This document shows, piece after piece, positions 3,334 through 51,802 of a stretch of DNA of 51,802 nucleotides. The translations under genes and the position numbers were made by a program. Source of the stretch: Escherichia phage vB_EcoS_NBD2. The notes below the pieces were generated by a model. It was given only the letters and a program-made list of their open reading frames with translations. It was not told the DNA's origin and did no database searches. The stretch is taken from the sequence record NC_031050.1, one strand, 5' to 3'. The number at the start of each line of letters is the position of its first letter. Positions within the stretch are counted from its first letter, which is position 1.

Positions 3334-3373
3334 CACTTTTTGTTAAAACGCCGAATCGGGGTTGCGCTATAGT
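3331..3373 (+). promoter_or_regulatory. motif promoter (TAGCACtttTTGTTAAAAC, 22 nt, TATAGT)
   Basis: Motif 3331-3349, -10 3368-3373. Confidence 0.55.
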
Positions 3374-3404
3374 AACCCCATCAACAACGAACGAGGAAAT
3401 GCAA

Positions 3405-5707: not shown

Positions 5708-6325
5708 ATGGCAACCATCATCATTTTGAACGCGCCACCGCGCGCGGGTAAAGACACGATCGCGAGCATTATCAATGAGCAATACGGCTTGCAGGTTGTG
5801 AGCTTTAAAACGCAGATGTTCAACATCGCTCGCGCCATCCTGGGCGGCGCTGATTTCGAAAACCCATTCATGCGGGTTTACAATACCGACGAGAAAGACA
5901 CGCGCAAGCTTGATTGCCTGGGAGGGATGACTTGCCGCGAGTTCATGATCTGGATTAGCGAAACCATCGTGAAACCGAAGTTCGGGAAAAAGCATTTCGG
6001 CTGGCTTATGGCTGACCTTCTCACCGAAATGGAAGCAGATCAGGATCTGACGATTTGCAGCGATGGCGGATTCCCTGACGAAGTGGAGGCGCTTATTGAT
6101 TGCGGTCACAAAGTCAAGCTGGTACGTATGCACCGTGAAGGCTTCGACTTCGGCAATGATAGCCGCGATTACATTAATCTTTCGCCGGAGTATCTCGCGA
6201 AGCCTGGCGTTGAGGTTATGGATCTTAAGTTGCAGCACGGCTCGCCGCAAGATGCAGCCGATACGATCGCCGCAATGTTCGTGCGCCCTCATCATGTCGA
6301 TTGGTCTGATGATATTCCCTGGTAA
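5708..6325 (+). CDS. deoxynucleoside monophosphate kinase-like P-loop kinase
   Basis: N-terminal P-loop NAPPRAGKDT resembling the T4 gene 1 dNMP kinase P-loop (SGKDT); 2 nt after the phosphatase stop. Confidence 0.55.
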   Translation: MATIIILNAPPRAGKDTIASIINEQYGLQVVSFKTQMFNIARAILGGADFENPFMRVYNTDEKDTRKLDCLGGMTCREFMIWISETIVKPKFGKKHFGWLMADLLTEMEADQDLTICSDGGFPDEVEALIDCGHKVKLVRMHREGFDFGNDSRDYINLSPEYLAKPGVEVMDLKLQHGSPQDAADTIAAMFVRPHHVDWSDDIPW

Positions 6326-6326
6326 A

Positions 6327-16017: not shown

Positions 16018-16045
16018 TTGACCGTTTAGCAAAAAGTGCTATTAT
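16018..16045 (+). promoter_or_regulatory. strong promoter for major capsid gene (TTGACC-16-TGcTATTAT); contains motif dyad in inverse orientation
   Basis: -35 16018-16023, TG 16037-16038, -10 16040-16045; TAGCA-aaaag-TGCTA at 16027-16041. Confidence 0.6.
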
Positions 16046-31276: not shown

Positions 31277-32335
31277 ATGACACCTACCAAACCGCAAGCG
31301 GATTTTTTCTGGTTCACAAACGATGAAATGCCGAACGACTTTTATCACGATAAAGAAGCCTGGACGTTCGACTATGTTTCCGGTTCAAGCCTGGGTAAAA
31401 TTCACTCATCATGCCTGGCAAAGTGGCGCTTCGAAGAGAATGAGCCAACGGCGGCGCTGGAGTTCGGCACACAGGCGCACACCAACTTTGAAAGCAACGA
31501 GCTATTCGCATCAACCTACCGACGCGCCCCGTTCGTTGAAGATTTCAAGGATGCTATCACTTCGCAAGCAGCATTCGCGGCTAAATTGAAAAGCTTCGGC
31601 CTGACAGGTACAAGCGGGAAGCAATATCCAGAGCTTTGCAAAATATACGCTGATTGCGGTGAAGATCTTAACGTAATGTGGATTGAAGATCTGATCGCGC
31701 AATCAAAGGCGGCGCACGATGGCGTTGAGTTGGTAAAGGCCGAAGATTATGATGCCTGTGTTTCAATGCGTAAGGTGCTGGAGTCTATACCGGAATACGC
31801 ACAACTCATGAACGATCCGGCAGCGATGCACGAGCTTTCATTGTTCGGCAAAATAAACGGCGTGAACGTCAAAGTTCGCCTGGATTACTGCGCAACAATC
31901 AGCGATCCTGAAATGATTAAGTTGCTGGGCTATAACCCAGAGATTAACCCAGAGATTGTGCTGATTCTTGACTATAAGACAACGACCAGCGCCAACCCTC
32001 ACGAGTTCGATCGAAAGGCGTTTGATCTGGGCTATTACTTGAAGATGGCTTTGCAGCGTGATTTGTTTGTCAATGTGTTTGAAGAAACGCGCCCCGTCGC
32101 AGTTGTCCTACTAACCCAGGAAAAGAAAGCGCCATTCTTGCCTCTGGCTCGACCAATGACGAAAGAGCAGATCATTCACGGGCGCAAGCAGTACATGAGC
32201 GTTATTCACCAGTACGAGATCAGCAGCCGTGATGATGTTTGGCCTTCTTACGCAAACGGCGCGCCATTCGTTCACCTGCAAACGCCGGATTACATCAAGC
32301 GCCAACATCCTGATATTTACGGCGAAAACAAATAG
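31277..32335 (+). CDS. PD-(D/E)xK-family recombination exonuclease
   Basis: Motifs VRLDY and ILDYKTT consistent with PD-(D/E)xK nuclease core; ORF 31217..32335 trimmed to ATG 31277 (RBS gaggat); precedes Erf-like and SSB genes. Confidence 0.5.
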   Translation: MTPTKPQADFFWFTNDEMPNDFYHDKEAWTFDYVSGSSLGKIHSSCLAKWRFEENEPTAALEFGTQAHTNFESNELFASTYRRAPFVEDFKDAITSQAAFAAKLKSFGLTGTSGKQYPELCKIYADCGEDLNVMWIEDLIAQSKAAHDGVELVKAEDYDACVSMRKVLESIPEYAQLMNDPAAMHELSLFGKINGVNVKVRLDYCATISDPEMIKLLGYNPEINPEIVLILDYKTTTSANPHEFDRKAFDLGYYLKMALQRDLFVNVFEETRPVAVVLLTQEKKAPFLPLARPMTKEQIIHGRKQYMSVIHQYEISSRDDVWPSYANGAPFVHLQTPDYIKRQHPDIYGENK

Positions 32336-32403
32336 CACTAAAAGCTAAACAAAAAGAGGCTCATACGGTATAATGAGCCTCAATCAAACAAACAAAGAAG
32401 GTA

Positions 32404-33130: not shown

Positions 33131-33598
33131 ATGCCGCACACTATCACTGGCGAGATCCGAAAGGCTCCATACACCAAAGACGGAAGCAACAACAATGGGC
33201 GCTGGAAGATGTACGCCGTTGACCTGTCAGAGCGAATGAAAGTTAAGGTTGAAGGGCAGGAACAGACCGTTTACACCAACTACCGCGCAGTTTTCTTCGC
33301 TAACGAAAACATGCTCTCCTGGTACGATGAAGCGTTCCAGTTGGGCAAGGTTGTTTCAATCTCCTGCGACACGCTGAACATCACCAGCCGAGACAGCAAC
33401 GGCACTGTATACACCACCGCCGAAATGATCCGCCCGCAACTGGTATTTAGTCAACGCGGCGCGCAGCAGCAAAGCGGAGGAAACCATCAGGGCGGGAATC
33501 AGCAGCAACAAGGCTGGGGGCAACCGCAACAACCGCAGCAGCAAAACAACCCGCCACCGAATCGCGGAAATCAGTTTGATGACGATATCCCATTCTGA
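33131..33598 (+). CDS. ssb: single-stranded DNA-binding protein
   Basis: Gly/Gln-rich linker and acidic C-terminal tail ending DDDIPF. Confidence 0.8.
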   Translation: MPHTITGEIRKAPYTKDGSNNNGRWKMYAVDLSERMKVKVEGQEQTVYTNYRAVFFANENMLSWYDEAFQLGKVVSISCDTLNITSRDSNGTVYTTAEMIRPQLVFSQRGAQQQSGGNHQGGNQQQQGWGQPQQPQQQNNPPPNRGNQFDDDIPF

Positions 33599-37017: not shown

Positions 37018-37494
37018 TTATTCTTTAGCTTTTAGTGCTGCCTCACGCTCGCGCTTAATCCGTTTCCATGATGGTTGTTCCGGCTTGTGGGCTAACTCAT
37101 CCTCACGAACCACACGCATCATTTCACGCTTTTTGCATCGCACTGTTAATGGCTTGCCGTTGCCGTCGAAGGTGAGATCTGGTCGGCACCATGTAGCGCG
37201 AAAGCCCTTAGCCCCATTTCGCTTATATGCGTTGTGCGCCTTCTGCGCCCCGCGCGCGGAAATCATGCCGTTTTTAATCCAGATGGTGAGCAGTGAGTTT
37301 GAGATCTTCAACTCACGGCAAACGTTGGCCTTCGAGCCGTAAAACTCGATAAGCATTTCAAGGCGGGCACGCAATCCGGCCTTTACTTCATCTTTCAGAA
37401 CGTAGTAGCCTGTAGGCCGCTTGCGCTTCTTCTTGTCTGCGCCGCGCTGCGTTCCGTTGTTCCCGTTAATGGCTCGCTTGTCAACTTCAATCAT
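37018..37494 (-). CDS. HTH DNA-binding protein, putative transcriptional regulator
   Basis: Predicted helix-turn-helix around ANVCRELKISNSLLTIWIKNG; basic N- and C-termini. Confidence 0.45.
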   Translation of the reverse strand: MIEVDKRAINGNNGTQRGADKKKRKRPTGYYVLKDEVKAGLRARLEMLIEFYGSKANVCRELKISNSLLTIWIKNGMISARGAQKAHNAYKRNGAKGFRATWCRPDLTFDGNGKPLTVRCKKREMMRVVREDELAHKPEQPSWKRIKREREAALKAKE

Positions 37495-47490: not shown

Positions 47491-47534
47491 ATAATAACAA
47501 AACCCGCCGAAGCTGGTTTAACAAAAAGTGCTAT
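47491..47534 (-). promoter_or_regulatory. motif promoter on - strand (22-23 nt, TATTAT-like)
   Basis: Reverse complement of 47515-47534 is AATAGCACtttTTGTTAAAC. Confidence 0.45.
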
Positions 47535-48220
47535 TTTGCGTTAGCCTGGAAAACGGCGCGTGCAAAGCCGCGAGGCGTTAGCGATCGGAGTTGCTTAGTC
47601 TTTGCAGACTTTCCGCCGAGGAACTTCCATCCCCAAAAGAAGTGAATCCCTTCATCATCCGGCAATTCCAGCTTTTTCGGTTGTTCGAAGCCCTCGCCAC
47701 ACCAGATACAAGTTTTCTTCGTGTAGCCATCGCGCAGCGGCATTTTCGGATGCCATGAGCCTTCATCGGCGTTGACGTAATACCCAAAATCGCGAGGGTG
47801 AAAATAGAAGTTTGGCTTGCCCATCATATCTGGATTTGAAAGCTTACCGACCGGATTCTCAATCATCCACGGCACGCCGAACGATTCGCCCAGAGACTTA
47901 ACGATCTTTGCATTCTCCAGGGCATATGCTAGTTCATCCTCTTCGCGGGCATGTTTCGCGCCTGAGTGAGCAAACAGCGTGCAATCTGGGAAGCCGAAGA
48001 TTATCCCAGGTTCAGGAATGCCCAGCAACCCGCATTTAATCTGGAAATCCTTGTCAATCCACATGTTGACGTAATGCAAATTTTCGTGCTGCATCTTCAC
48101 AGCGTACTCGCCATGATTGCCGGAATCCGCGTTGAAGCAGTAGACATGATAACCAGCAGTCGCCCAGGGCAAACCCATGATGCCTGAGCCATCAAACAGT
48201 GACCAAACAACCTTTTTCAT
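47531..48220 (-). CDS. putative DNA methyltransferase-like protein (cytosine-5 MTase-like motifs)
   Basis: Motif I-like LFDGSG, Cys-containing FPDC where PCQ is expected, ENP where ENV is expected; only 229 aa. Confidence 0.35.
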   Translation of the reverse strand: MKKVVWSLFDGSGIMGLPWATAGYHVYCFNADSGNHGEYAVKMQHENLHYVNMWIDKDFQIKCGLLGIPEPGIIFGFPDCTLFAHSGAKHAREEDELAYALENAKIVKSLGESFGVPWMIENPVGKLSNPDMMGKPNFYFHPRDFGYYVNADEGSWHPKMPLRDGYTKKTCIWCGEGFEQPKKLELPDDEGIHFFWGWKFLGGKSAKTKQLRSLTPRGFARAVFQANAK

Positions 48221-48465
48221 TCTGCAACCTCTTCAAATTTAGCAACGCCCAGAATCACCCATCCTGACGGGTAAGCCGTTACAGCCTGCCAACTGCTCGA
48301 CCCGTTCCGGCGCTTCTCGTCACCAATCACGATGGCATCGGCTCCAGCGCGTTCGGCCTCGTAAACCTTCCCCTTCGTGAAGTGGGGCTTTTGCTTCTTA
48401 TCGGTTGGCGACACCGCGCCAGTGCATTTGAGTTTCATACTTCGCCTTTTAAAACGGGATTTCAT
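48217..48465 (-). CDS. hypothetical protein
   Basis: 82-aa ORF in compact - strand operon. Confidence 0.4.
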   Translation of the reverse strand: MKSRFKRRSMKLKCTGAVSPTDKKQKPHFTKGKVYEAERAGADAIVIGDEKRRNGSSSWQAVTAYPSGWVILGVAKFEEVAE

Positions 48466-48682
48466 TTATGCAGTTATTGCAAACCGCGTCAATGGTGCAG
48501 GTGCAGTGATGCACGTAAACAGCAGGGGCGCTGCCGGATGGCGTGCTTTCCGCGTCCATATCCATCGCCCCAAGAGCAACATCTAATTCAACGCAACCGT
48601 AAGCAACCTTGAGCGCCCACTCCGCGTTAAGTCCCGCATCAATCGCCGCGCGGTGACGGCTCCAGAAATTATTTTGCTGCAT
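48449..48682 (-). CDS. hypothetical protein
   Basis: 77-aa ORF, overlaps neighbours. Confidence 0.35.
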   Translation of the reverse strand: MQQNNFWSRHRAAIDAGLNAEWALKVAYGCVELDVALGAMDMDAESTPSGSAPAVYVHHCTCTIDAVCNNCINEIPF

Positions 48683-49031
48683 GTTTTTTAAACTCCCGAA
48701 GTTTAGCCGCGCATGACTTGCTGCATGTTTTGCCCCAGCCTCGCGCGAGGTCTGCTTTTTTCACTGCGTAAACTCGCGGGCACCCAGGAGCCTCGCAGCA
48801 CTTCATTGCATTGCTTTTGCCGTAGCCGATAGGCTTCCCGCCACCTAACGCGATGTGAGTTTCTCGCGGTGAGTCATCCTTCTTTGTTCGCCAGAATTGC
48901 TGCACACTGGCGATCACTTCCCCATCTTCAGACAAGAGGATCAGAACTGCCTTTTCGCCAGATTCTACAACTTCGCACATGTGCTGCTTATCGTCACCGA
49001 ACTTGATGAGTACGCGATCGCCAGCTTTCAT
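48669..49031 (-). CDS. hypothetical Cys-containing protein
   Basis: 120 aa with clustered cysteines (CCEAPGC...CSKSC). Confidence 0.45.
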   Translation of the reverse strand: MKAGDRVLIKFGDDKQHMCEVVESGEKAVLILLSEDGEVIASVQQFWRTKKDDSPRETHIALGGGKPIGYGKSNAMKCCEAPGCPRVYAVKKADLARGWGKTCSKSCAAKLREFKKHAAK

Positions 49032-49032
49032 G

Positions 49033-49260
49033 TTAGCCCCCGAAAGAAACGATGAAGATGTTGTGAGTGTCCAGCGCCTTGATCACTTCCGCTTCGGTGT
49101 AGCGAGTGAGGCCGGAGCCTGGAGTTTTACCTACCACAAACGAACCATCACGGCGGGCAGTAACGCACAGTTGAGTGATGCCGCTTGCGCGATCCATCTT
49201 CACTTTTACTGCGCCAGTTTTCGCCAGGTGAGCCATAATGTTTGCGGTTTTAGTTTTCAT
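49033..49260 (-). CDS. hypothetical protein
   Basis: ORF 49033..49293 trimmed to ATG at 49260 (RBS aaggaaa); motif promoter upstream. Confidence 0.45.
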   Translation of the reverse strand: MKTKTANIMAHLAKTGAVKVKMDRASGITQLCVTARRDGSFVVGKTPGSGLTRYTEAEVIKALDTHNIFIVSFGG

Positions 49261-49291
49261 TTCAGTTTCCTTGTTTGGTTGGTGTGAAAGC

Positions 49292-49336
49292 ATTATGCCA
49301 AATCACGCCGGATTAGTTTTAACAAAAAGTGCTATT
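49292..49336 (-). promoter_or_regulatory. motif promoter on - strand (22 nt, CATAAT)
   Basis: Reverse complement of 49316-49336 is the motif; -10 is reverse complement of 49292-49297. Confidence 0.5.
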
Positions 49337-49571
49337 TCAATTTTATTTCGTTGTACGCGCAGAACTCAATCACGTACTCGCATTCGCTGGGCGACTCACT
49401 ACCTCGAAGCACATCACAGCCGCCCTGACTACCCAGAAACGCTGGGCAGGTGATGCACAACTCACCGCCGCATTTCGATTCAACGATTGACAACCCGTTA
49501 CACCTCCCGCCGCCGAATCGGTGCGGGAAGTCATAGGCCATGCAATCGCAGGTAACTTGCTTCCGCATCAC
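49332..49571 (-). CDS. hypothetical cysteine-rich protein (possible zinc-binding)
   Basis: 79 aa with about 11 Cys including CxC and CxxC pairs. Confidence 0.45.
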   Translation of the reverse strand: MMRKQVTCDCMAYDFPHRFGGGRCNGLSIVESKCGGELCITCPAFLGSQGGCDVLRGSESPSECEYVIEFCAYNEIKLK

Positions 49572-49577
49572 TCCCCC

Positions 49578-49856
49578 TTACGCGGTTTTCTTTGCGATCT
49601 TCCAAGCTTCTTTAAACGCTGGTACGTCGTCGATCTCAATCCAAAAGCCAGAACTCATGCCCTCTTCGTACAGCGGGCAAAGGTCGCAGTATGAGTGCCA
49701 GGTTTTTTCTTCGCCGCCGATTGAAAAGCCAGTGCTCATTGCGCAAAGTGCATCTTCAACACGTTCCAGGCGCTCTGCGTCGTTGTCGTGAATTACGAAG
49801 TTCCATTTGCCGTTATACTCGCTACCCAGATTGATTGATTCGCGTACCAGTTTCAT
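49578..49856 (-). CDS. hypothetical protein
   Basis: ORF 49578..49991 trimmed to ATG at 49856; motif promoter upstream. Confidence 0.45.
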   Translation of the reverse strand: MKLVRESINLGSEYNGKWNFVIHDNDAERLERVEDALCAMSTGFSIGGEEKTWHSYCDLCPLYEEGMSSGFWIEIDDVPAFKEAWKIAKKTA

Positions 49857-49893
49857 TTTGTTGCCCTTTTGTGTGCTTCGTTTCGATGGAGTG

Positions 49894-49938
49894 ATAATAA
49901 CAAAAGCACGAACCGCCGTTTTAGCAATTCGTGCTATT
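49894..49938 (-). promoter_or_regulatory. motif promoter on - strand (22 nt, TATTAT)
   Basis: Reverse complement of 49918-49938 is AATAGCACgaaTTGCTAAAAC; -10 is reverse complement of 49894-49899. Confidence 0.5.
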
Positions 49939-49991
49939 TGATTAAGATCGCGCGCGAAACTTCCGCACCTGGGCAGTTGGCCTTTGACCAA

Positions 49992-50180
49992 TCAGCGCGT
50001 CAATTGCTTTTCGTATCGGTTAAGCTTAATCCAGATCTCACCGTACTTGCGCGCCCACTTGTTCGCACCAGGCCGAAAGAGCGCCTCTGTATCGTACAGG
50101 TGAGAATAAACCCACTTCATGCAGGCTATATGCCGGAGCATCCCCTTGCACTTGCCGCGATTTGTCCAGCGCCTGATCAC
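49992..50180 (-). CDS. hypothetical protein
   Basis: 62-aa basic ORF in - strand operon. Confidence 0.35.
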   Translation of the reverse strand: MIRRWTNRGKCKGMLRHIACMKWVYSHLYDTEALFRPGANKWARKYGEIWIKLNRYEKQLTR

Positions 50181-50422
50181 TCGATCACCTCCACTTCATC
50201 ACTACGGAAGTAGATCGAGAAGTTCCACATATCCGGCCCTTCCATGATTTCAGCCGCCGCCCCGCCATGCTTCGCGCAGTCGTGGAGGTGAATATCGAAA
50301 CCCCACTCCGCGCCCATTGCTTCGCTGTGATACTTCGCCTCAACCTCGAAAGGCTTAAACGGGAACTCTTCATTCCATACGTGAACATAATTTTCGTGAC
50401 CGCCGATTACTTTTACTTTCAT
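50177..50422 (-). CDS. hypothetical protein
   Basis: 81-aa ORF, ATGA overlap. Confidence 0.4.
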   Translation of the reverse strand: MKVKVIGGHENYVHVWNEEFPFKPFEVEAKYHSEAMGAEWGFDIHLHDCAKHGGAAAEIMEGPDMWNFSIYFRSDEVEVIE

Positions 50423-50670
50423 GATGATAGCCCCTTGTTGGTTAGTTGTTCTATAATGTTACAGGTTTTGTTTATGCAATCCGCCTGGGCAGATGCGTTT
50501 CCGCTCGTGTAATCACGCTCGACAAGTATATCATAGGCCTCTTCCGTCCAGTGGATGATTGTTACGGTTGTGATTGGTGCTCCCATTCCATTCGAGCGAT
50601 GTTCGCGCCGGACGTAAAGCCCCAAACGTTCAGCCCTGGCAAGAGCGGCGATTAAGCCAGCATGTTTCAT
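50419..50670 (-). CDS. hypothetical protein
   Basis: ORF trimmed to ATG at 50670. Confidence 0.4.
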   Translation of the reverse strand: MKHAGLIAALARAERLGLYVRREHRSNGMGAPITTVTIIHWTEEAYDILVERDYTSGNASAQADCINKTCNIIEQLTNKGLSS

Positions 50671-50927
50671 AATTCCACCGTTAGAAATTGAACTGCCTTT
50701 TCGATGCACTCACCCTGCGAGCCGTAGAACACAGAGAAACCACGCTGGCAGATTGTCCAGGTGCGCGATCCCTTTGCGGTCTGCTTAATCTCAATGTGAT
50801 TGTAAGGATTGCGACGCACGCACTTGAACGCCCCGACCTTCTCACCCTTGCGCTTCGTACTGTATTTGTCCGTAACGACAATCCCGCTATCCGTTGCCAT
50901 GTCGATTGCTTGCTGAATGGTAATCAT
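50667..50927 (-). CDS. hypothetical protein
   Basis: ORF trimmed to ATG at 50927. Confidence 0.4.
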   Translation of the reverse strand: MITIQQAIDMATDSGIVVTDKYSTKRKGEKVGAFKCVRRNPYNHIEIKQTAKGSRTWTICQRGFSVFYGSQGECIEKAVQFLTVEL

Positions 50928-50931
50928 GATC

Positions 50932-51120
50932 TCACCCTCTGCGCCAGATAGAGGCCTTCGCCCCAAATTCAACAACTTTCAATCGCTGCTCAACTCGCGG
51001 AGTCATCTTGTAAGGCCTCCAGTTGAAGTCCGTTTGAAGAGAGAACCATGACCCGTTAGCGGTCTGGATGAATTGCCCATCTTCGCTAGCGTGACGTGTA
51101 CCAGTGATTTCTTTACGCAT
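50932..51120 (-). CDS. hypothetical protein
   Basis: ORF trimmed to ATG at 51120; first gene of rightward-end - strand operon; motif promoter upstream. Confidence 0.4.
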   Translation of the reverse strand: MRKEITGTRHASEDGQFIQTANGSWFSLQTDFNWRPYKMTPRVEQRLKVVEFGAKASIWRRG

Positions 51121-51156
51121 TTTGTGTGCCTCAGTCTGTTTCGTTTCGATGAAATG

Positions 51157-51201
51157 ATAGTAACCCATCTGCGCTGATCGGTTTTAGCAAAAAGTGCTAT
51201 T
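51157..51201 (-). promoter_or_regulatory. motif promoter on - strand for the right-end early operon
   Basis: Reverse complement of 51181-51201 is AATAGCACtttTTGCTAAAAC. Confidence 0.45.
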
Positions 51202-51217
51202 TATTCGATTGCCCTCC

Positions 51218-51275
51218 ATTATTCCAATTATTCCAATTATTCCGAATATTCCATTCCACCAGAATAATTATTCCA
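51218..51275. repeat. tandem 9-bp ATTATTCCA-like repeats
   Basis: Three consecutive near-perfect units plus degenerate copies. Confidence 0.7.
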
Positions 51276-51301
51276 GATCTCGTTACAGATCAGATCCGAT
51301 C
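51276..51301. other. cluster of four GATC (Dam) sites within 26 bp
   Basis: GATC at 51276, 51288, 51293, 51298, followed by TGAT/GATG-rich tract 51300-51380. Confidence 0.6.
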
Positions 51302-51802
51302 GTGATGATTCGATGCCGCTCCTTTCGTGATTAGATTTGATGAGTTTTGATTGTGATGTGATGAATGATGATGATTGATGACACTAGACCGATTGGTCTA
51401 ATCATTTTTTCGCACCGCACTTTTTGCGCTTGTTATTGTTGTTGTCGTGTGTTTCAATTTCACGCCCTCCGTGGAATCCGAAACGGAATAGTTGTTGATT
51501 AACAAAAATAACACTATACCCTTTTATAGTAAGTAATTAATATATATAGGTTTTTTATATTATATAAATATTGTTGTTATAGATTGTTCTATATGTTTCA
51601 CCATTCACGGGAGATATGTATACATTTTCCGAAAGGAATGGGCATATGATATTGCGCTTCCATTTGGACGGCGTGACGTAGGTATACATATACCCCTCCG
51701 CAAATAGCGGAACAAGGGCAACAGCCGATAACATTCGTCGATAACAAGCGGTGCGCCTGCGCTCGCCTCGCAAAAAGTGTTATAAGGCCGATTATTAACA
51801 AC

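Follow-up and report, generated by a model that had tools for sequence, protein, structure and literature searches.

The leftward right-end cluster of Escherichia phage vB_EcoS_NBD2 as a two-tier T1-type block with a possible mimic of the SSB C-terminal tip

The right end of the Escherichia phage vB_EcoS_NBD2 genome (NC_031050.1; 51,802 nucleotides, the whole stretch being designated here as the window) contains a compact array of small genes on the - strand at positions 48217-51120, which are lettered A to K from right to left and are followed by the DNA methyltransferase gene L. The favoured reading of this array, to which a probability of about 0.5 is assigned, is that of a T1-type block in two tiers, where the conserved tier would encode accessory proteins of DNA metabolism and one of them, protein J, would imitate the C-terminal tip of SSB, the protein that binds single-stranded DNA.

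The SSB tip is a conserved hexapeptide, DDDIPF, which recruits at least 17 partner proteins according to the available text of two papers (PMC5872125, PMC10018359), and lambda Red-beta, a phage annealase, is also indicated to bind this tip in the available text of a third (PMC6393309). The window phage encodes its own SSB (33131-33598; phrog_44) with the tail ...NQFDDDIPF. Protein J ends with ...CNNCINEIPF directly before the stop codon, the tip being preceded by an HHCTC...CNNC cluster. When 20 homologues are aligned, conservation is seen in the 45 residues at the N-terminus and in the final three, with I75, P76 and F77 nearly invariant, and the intervening segment is variable. All 38 clusters of J homologues terminate in [I/F/M]-P-[F/W], represented by the variants IPF, IPW, FPF, and MPF. 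Two types of tail precede this end, for which ...AVCNNCINEIPF (window type) and ...LKFDDGIPF (T1 type) are the examples: 24 of the 38 clusters possess a cysteine-free acidic tail, 22 of them ending with FDDGIPF, which is identical to FDDDIPF of SSB in six of seven residues, and the other 14, including the window type, carry a CxC...CxxC cluster just before IPF. The residues before the tip are N-E in the window protein, follow the pattern F-D-D-G-I-P-F in those 22 clusters and are D-E or cysteine in the others; on average, the last 30 residues of the family comprise 24% D+E and 6% K+R. The last three residues of J are of the hydrophobic-Pro-Phe type, and the motif forms the very C-terminus, leaving the carboxylate of an aromatic residue free, which is also the case for T1 ST6 (...EDVDDYIPW) and SRT8 gp67 (...GKDYIPW). 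A possible linker stretch, STPSGSAP, is suggested in the window protein by composition only.

Such ends are rare in this genome. The window has 665 open frames with a length of 40 codons or more, and just three of these terminate in [IVLMFY]P[FWY], namely, the phage SSB, J, and a deoxynucleoside monophosphate (dNMP) kinase, and in T1 they are confined to the SSB homologue (ST27) and ST6. The dNMP kinase (5708-6325, + strand, 205 amino acids, phrog_139) is 42% identical to T1 ST62 and ends with ...HVDWSDDIPW, this tip being carried by an extension of the C-terminus not present in T1 ST62. Protein G of the same cluster belongs to a family in which 9 of the 150 best representatives end in an acidic run followed by [IVL]P[FW], when about 0.2 would be expected from an estimate based on residue frequencies; these members have C-terminal extensions such as ...EEEADDVPF, ...LSDDDVPF, and ...ALEDIPF.

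No OB-fold, Pfam, or PDB match was obtained for J, and its family phrog_9323 is annotated as unknown function; since neither an OB-fold nor an SSB family match is present and the protein is only 77 amino acids long, J is not an SSB. It is possible, at somewhat below even confidence, that J presents an imitation of the SSB tip on another scaffold, by which it engages the readers of the SSB tail. The broader proposal, equally tentative, is that the J/T1-ST6 family and a subset of G proteins may constitute an unrecognised set of small non-OB phage proteins displaying a copy of the SSB tip. The literature search, within the library available to it, yielded no paper describing non-SSB phage proteins with such tips. 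According to the proposed mechanism J would dock into the pocket where SSB-interacting proteins read the SSB tail, its targets being enzymes of replication, repair, and recombination in the host or else Erf, exonuclease, and helicase of the phage, and would compete with or redirect these tail readers during infection. The tip-bearing proteins could act as decoys stripping host repair, recombination, and restart enzymes from SSB or, alternatively, as adaptors delivering those enzymes to phage DNA, and the trailing methyltransferase L would protect phage DNA from restriction. The SSB-like tip of J, the single concrete hint at a function, points to possible hijacking of DNA replication or repair, which is a form of host takeover that the original prediction had not noticed. 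If the broader proposal is true, the phage would field at least three tip-bearing proteins: SSB, J, and the dNMP kinase.

Over the region 48000-51802 the window shares 97% identity with Klebsiella phage vB_KM5a1_KLB19 and 95% with vB_KaeD_HazelMika, and these two phages are members of the genus Vilniusvirus of the family Drexlerviridae (T1-like phages); by this nucleotide identity the window phage is a Vilniusvirus-like member of Drexlerviridae. The block itself is ordinary in the sense that near-identical copies are already deposited in GenBank as "hypothetical proteins." The following genes were recognized on the - strand.

A, 50932-51120, - strand: 62 amino acids, basic; Shine-Dalgarno sequence GAGG; near-orphan.
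B, 50667-50927, - strand: 86 amino acids; rare.
C, 50419-50670, - strand: 83 amino acids; ATGA overlap with B; rare.
D, 50177-50422, - strand: 81 amino acids, acidic (16 D+E versus 6 K+R); ATGA overlap with C.
E, 49992-50180, - strand: 62 amino acids, very basic (15 K+R); GTG start within a GTGA overlap with D.
F, 49578-49856, - strand: 92 amino acids; DUF5417, homologue of T4 Frd.1.
G, 49332-49568, - strand: 78 amino acids, nine cysteines; phrog_5016.
H, 49033-49260, - strand: 75 amino acids, basic; phrog_4344; homologue of T1 ST5.
I, 48669-49031, - strand: 120 amino acids, six cysteines; predicted beta-barrel, linker, four-cysteine ribbon, and basic helix.
J, 48449-48682, - strand: 77 amino acids, acidic, five cysteines; phrog_9323; homologue of T1 ST6.
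K, 48217-48438, - strand: 73 amino acids; phrog_4448; ATGA overlap with the methyltransferase gene.
L, 47531-48220, - strand: DNA methyltransferase of 229 amino acids; phrog_757 (E = 8e-79); final gene of the P3 unit (see below).

The original prediction, which had described about eleven small leftward genes with overlapping start and stop codons, at least three motif promoters, and two cysteine-rich products, is an accurate account of the cluster. The gene number corresponds to 11 open reading frames (ORFs) of 62-120 amino acids in 48217-51120, all of them being coding by the codon-usage model trained on the long genes of this phage, which gives every ORF a positive score in its own frame and in none of the other five; a purine-rich Shine-Dalgarno sequence precedes each start. 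The overlaps are found at five junctions, B/C, C/D, and K/methyltransferase (ATGA), D/E (GTGA), and I/J (14 nt). Longer versions of three ORFs (78-residue A, 137-residue F, and 86-residue H) were rejected, and the short versions are taken as the genes because the longer starts lie upstream of or inside promoter elements. Gene L, which also gives a weak match to the Pfam C-5 methylase family, lies outside the interval of the original prediction.

The predicted promoters occur exactly where they had been placed, with the motif ATAGCAC-N4-TGYTAAAAC found without mismatches at 49316, 49918, and 51181 on the - strand. These elements and the associated hairpin are as follows.

P1, motif at 51181-51200, - strand: ATAGCACTTTTTGCTAAAAC; -10 element TACTAT at 51157-51162.
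P2, motif at 49918-49937, - strand: ATAGCACGAATTGCTAAAAC; extended -10 element TGtTATTAT at 49894-49902; CA at 49887-49888.
P3, motif at 49316-49335, - strand: ATAGCACTTTTTGTTAAAAC; extended -10 element TGgCATAAT at 49292-49300; CA at 49285-49286.
Hairpin with U-run, 49901-49940, - strand: UUUUGUUAUUAU; partly made of the P2 motif itself.

Transcription from P1 is likely to start at the conserved CA at 51150-51151. In the whole window 24 copies of the motif are found at up to three mismatches, against 0.67 expected, and in about 22 of the 24 copies the motif is followed by a -10 element and its orientation matches that of the genes. The consensus derived from 17 copies of common spacing is aAATAGCAC-N-aaTTGyTAAAac, 18 nt, (TGn)TATAAT, 5 nt, and CA. 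A TATAAT-like hexamer is located 18 nt after the motif in P1-P3, in agreement with tG.tATAaT of the 17-copy consensus, after which CA comes 6-7 nt later; TTGCTA of the motif is situated 22 nt from the -10 element, in comparison with the norm of 16-18 nt, and a simple sigma-70 scan called none of P1-P3. By these features P1-P3 are assigned as predicted extended -10 promoters of the sigma-70 type with a phage-specific 20-bp upstream element. Within this 20-mer lies the dyad TAGCA-N6-TGCTA with its centre near -42, a geometry which, by analogy with class II activators, would suit a dimeric factor placed in the same way, and the phage regulator encoded at 37018-37494 (phrog_2856) is a candidate reader of the dyad. 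The motif is confined to non-structural regions, the structural module occupying about 9-29 kb, except for one antisense copy at 16023, and this distribution fits a putative non-late class of promoters. On the + strand the sites are located at 776, 1278, 1904, 2655, 3330, 4330, 5001, 6326, 7180, and 8215 and, in the right part, at 32332, 35956, 37505, 40074, 41105, and 43131; those on the - strand are at 16023, 29788, 47515, 49316, 49918, and 51181. The literature search gave nothing useful on Vilniusvirus promoters or Drexlerviridae early genes.

The hairpin within P2 is a terminator-like site (49935-49905, 13 pairs) with a folding energy of -20.5 kcal/mol (z = -6.5; none of 200 shuffled sequences was as stable) and is the probable intrinsic terminator of the A-E operon. 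At P3 no significant hairpin was found by the RNA folding test (z = +0.5), so that transcripts from P2 can read through into H-K. The stop codon TAG of G lies within ATAGCAC of P3, and TAG of L lies within the next promoter motif at 47515-47534. By the arrangement of these predicted elements the cluster is shown to have two transcriptional tiers: P1 would drive A-E, a unit closed by the hairpin and U-run embedded in P2, and P2 and P3 would drive F-K, reading on into the methyltransferase gene L. As a separate observation, a GC-rich hairpin spanning the spacer and the -10 element is present in 13 of 22 promoter copies (z < -2, mononucleotide shuffle), the mean over all 22 copies being z = -2.9, for example at 1298-1335, 1924-1961, 3350-3387, and 32352-32389. 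The stems vary from copy to copy (GGGGCTAT/ATAGCCCC, GGCACGTG/CATGTGCC, and GAGGCTCAT/ATGAGCCTC). At 6326, 47515, and 49918 the hairpin with a T-run resembles a terminator fused to the next promoter; the other hairpin-bearing copies have no T-run and possibly represent an RNA processing or stability site or a DNA-level control element.

The two tiers differ in conservation when compared with the phage collection of 50,697 records. Genes A, C, and D are missing from both closest relatives, KLB19 and HazelMika, and have marginal matches only: A gave weak matches in two phages of about 95 kb, C gave a weak match to phrog_13365 and weak matches in Enterobacter phage F20 and Hafnia phage yong3, and D gave a single marginal match in Enterobacter phage Ec_L1 (E = 5e-3, 29.5% identity), the Ec_L1 alignment beginning in C and extending over the initial 35 residues of D. 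By these searches D is effectively an orphan. Gene B is present in 10 records in all and is 93% identical in KLB19 and HazelMika, which are also the only two records containing E. Relative to these two phages the C-D pair (50178-50664) is a clean insertion separating B from E, and in the region of gene A (50935-51140) the gene is replaced in KLB19 and missing in HazelMika; KLB19 also has an extra gene of 76 amino acids between J and K, and the exchanges fall at gene boundaries. Judged by this distribution, rarity and mosaicism are confined to the A-E tier, and both features are usual for counter-defence cargo.

Genes of the second tier are found in far more records: F in 1417 (including T4-like frd.1), G in 529 (Klebsiella, Pseudomonas, Bordetella, Serratia, and other phages), J in 452 (the T1 ST6 family), H in 448 (the T1 ST5 family), K in 141 (with 99-100% identity in close relatives), and I in 136. 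The gene order G..H-J-ST7 is retained in SRT8, and Webervirus KL keeps F-x-G-x-H-methylase and has no I, J, or K. The wide conservation of G and J (529 and 452 records) suits a housekeeping or replication-linked role over strain-specific anti-defence. We infer that the products of the conserved tier are small accessory proteins of DNA metabolism and not anti-defence cargo of the classic type, J being the clearest case.

The cysteine-rich nature that the original prediction had attributed to two proteins was observed for G (9 of 78 residues, P = 4e-7) and I (6 of 120, P = 0.003) against a cysteine background of 1.2% in the long ORFs of the phage; J, which had not been flagged, is the third such protein (5 of 77, P = 0.002). 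The suggested zinc binding of G and I is plausible, as predicted from their invariant Cys/His ligand sets. The signature of G is TCxCxAYxFPHRFGGGxC...CxxC...C...C, in which the ligands C7, C9, H16, C23, C38, C41, C51, and C63 are invariant in 24 sequences, together with T6, A11, Y12, F14, P15, R17, F18, G19, G20, and G21; seven cysteines and one histidine are enough for two sites, and G is a candidate two-zinc protein. A profile search of 1.84 billion representative proteins returned 361 clusters of the G family at 50% identity, nearly all of them stand-alone proteins of 70-130 amino acids. The AlphaFold2 model of G has a predicted local distance difference test (pLDDT) score of 73.6 and gave no fold match in PDB. 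Domain fusions were sought among the longer representatives and were not accepted, the only matches being a sub-threshold Phage_rep_O (26.5 bits on one fused member versus the Pfam cut-off of 28.7) and a sub-threshold Lar. The genomic neighbourhoods of distant G and J homologues contained just more small genes of unknown function.

Protein I begins with a predicted SH3/Tudor-like beta-barrel followed by a disordered linker, and its C-terminal ribbon has C79, C84, C103, and C107 invariant in 30 sequences and the motif RGWG..CSKSCAAK.R on a basic helix; this C-terminal domain is found alone in other PHROGs and in distant phages. The finger of the gyrase inhibitor YacG contains FCSKRC, which the CSKSC element in the CX4C...CX3C arrangement of I resembles. 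The link was rejected, since profile comparison (hhalign) gave about 1% probability over 7 columns and Pfam gave no YacG match; moreover, unlike YacG, protein I carries the additional N-terminal barrel. For G and I the most probable role is that of binding modules which are stabilised by zinc and take part in the same process as J.

Protein F matches Pfam PF17438 (DUF5417) with 157.4 bits versus the cut-off of 23.9 over residues 1-90 of the 91-position profile, and the literature search found no paper on DUF5417. A full zinc site in F was considered and rejected, since just CxxC is conserved in T4-type Frd.1. Residues 21-69 of H aligned with the N-terminal ~50 residues of the archaeal Hjc resolvase (best E = 0.035), a match seen for four related PDB sequences by phmmer; it is probably spurious, because H is too short for a full nuclease and the stretch is Gly/Ser-rich. 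For H, K, and A-E nothing was found beyond PHROG families of unknown function. The PDB sequence searches, made with either the single protein or the profile of its family, covered eight of the eleven proteins (B, D, F, G, H, I, J, and K) and gave nothing significant.

Several observations weigh against the favoured reading. The tip of the window J, CINEIPF, is a weaker variant with one acidic residue and only E-I-P-F in common with SSB, and it directly follows the cysteine cluster instead of an acidic disordered linker; because of this weaker variant the mimicry proposed for the present phage rests on homology and on retention of I-P-F. The G protein of the window does not possess the tip, as is the case for 94% of the G-family representatives, and the fusion of G with Phage_rep_O could be a gene-calling artefact. 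The upstream 20-mer of the promoters is not a canonical -35 element, and the state of Webervirus KL indicates that I, J, and K are dispensable in some relatives.

The original prediction had placed the cluster among early gene blocks with host-takeover and anti-defence factors, and a reading that extends this to the whole block, where each small protein would act independently against a target in host defence or housekeeping, the cysteine-rich members being zinc-stabilised inhibitors, is considered unlikely. It is favoured by small genes with their own promoters at the genome end, by the restriction of these promoters to non-structural regions, by the mosaic and near-orphan state of the A-E operon, as is often observed for accessory counter-defence cargo, by the strongly acidic D and strongly basic E, and by the co-transcribed DNA methyltransferase, which would be a counter-restriction function. 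However, no similarity to known anti-defence, toxin, or takeover families was found for A-J in Pfam, PHROGs, NCBIfam, and PADLOC, none of which is a dedicated anti-defence library, and K, compared with Pfam and PHROGs only, gave nothing relevant to anti-defence; G, J, H, and F are also kept across hundreds of phages of several genera, unlike counter-defence genes with fast turnover. The early, takeover, and anti-defence interpretation is a reasonable prior that no specific match supports.

The proteins that would read the tip of J may belong to the phage and not to the host (Erf annealase, RecE-like exonuclease, helicase, or primase); J would then serve the replication-recombination machinery of the phage from within, as an adaptor for its assembly or regulation, and this version is regarded as improbable to about the same degree as the inhibitor arsenal. 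The phage does encode SSB ending with ...FDDDIPF, Erf, a RecE-like nuclease, a primase, and two helicases, its dNMP kinase bears ...DDIPW, a single ST7-type gene separates J from the helicase gene downstream, an arrangement shared by ST6 in T1, and phage annealases are described as binding SSB tails in the available text of PMC6393309; nevertheless, the tip is near-identical to the host tail in most homologues, so that the partners may also be host proteins. Still less probable is a coincidental resemblance, where I-P-F would be an element of structure or stability and the block a collection of dispensable ORFans without a shared theme. This reading is favoured by the position of the window tip directly after the cysteine cluster with I-P-F alone matching SSB, by the absence of J from some relatives, and by the label "unknown function" on all the families, but the last three residues are kept in all 38 clusters and in T1, SRT8, KLB19, and HazelMika, 22 clusters match six of the seven residues of the SSB tip, and such ends are very rare in this genome, otherwise marking SSB. 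Since the preceding 20-30 residues switch between two unrelated designs, selection would be acting on the free C-terminal tip.

The remaining layout of the window is like that of the published T1 genome: small genes run rightward at the left end, the structural genes occupy the middle, and a region with recombination, SSB, primase, helicase, Dam, and lysis genes follows. Between the leftward block and the genome end or rightward block lies an AT-rich, non-coding stretch of about 600 nt (51201-51802), which is 96-98% conserved in KLB19 and HazelMika. It contains four tandem copies of ATTATTCCA at 51218-51253, TGATGA-type repeats at 51328-51381, several inverted repeats, and degenerate fragments of the promoter motif at 51417-51427 and 51770-51783, and it may serve as an origin, for packaging, or in regulation.

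With regard to further research, the split into a hypervariable A-E operon and a conserved operon of F-K and the methyltransferase designates the former as the place to seek strain-specific counter-defence genes and the latter as a set of core accessory functions. The J/ST6 proteins occur in about 450 sequenced Drexlerviridae genomes, and, if the role of the SSB-like tip is confirmed, they would provide a new way for phages to tap the central DNA-maintenance hub of the host. The G family is widespread among phages and is defined by eight invariant metal ligands, while neither a Pfam entry nor a structural relative exists for it. Together these three points give concrete handles on genes that have been blank since T1 genome sequencing.

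In comparison with known systems, the motif of J, like the SSB tip (...DFDDDIPF), is located at the extreme C-terminus and ends with I-P-F, and acidic residues precede it in most homologues; unlike SSB, J is a protein of 77 amino acids with a helical-looking N-terminal domain. Protein F shares 51% identity with Frd.1 from ime09, a T4-like phage, with CxxC and the C-terminal WKIxKK conserved; in T4-like phages frd.1 is located between gene 32 (SSB) and frd, whereas F stands behind its own right-end promoter. The closest likeness is to T1 (NC_005833), where ST1-ST7 are all hypothetical proteins upstream of the ST9 helicase and form a syntenic block. Homologues of A-G, I, and K are not detectable in T1; this phage does not carry the ATAGCAC...TTGCTAAAAC promoter motif, and its cluster contains an HNH gene. 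The T1-type tail of J is acidic and cysteine-free, in contrast to the CxC...CxxC cluster in the tail of the window J. In both phages the leftward right-end cluster leads into an ST7-type gene and then a helicase of the DUF3987 type, the T1 counterparts of this region being ST1-ST10; ST5 is the counterpart of H (42% identity), and ST6 is that of J, being 65% identical to it over the N-terminal 46 residues and having the acidic tail ...DDYIPW. By this synteny and homology the block is assigned as the version, in this phage, of the T1-type right-arm cluster that precedes the replicative helicase.

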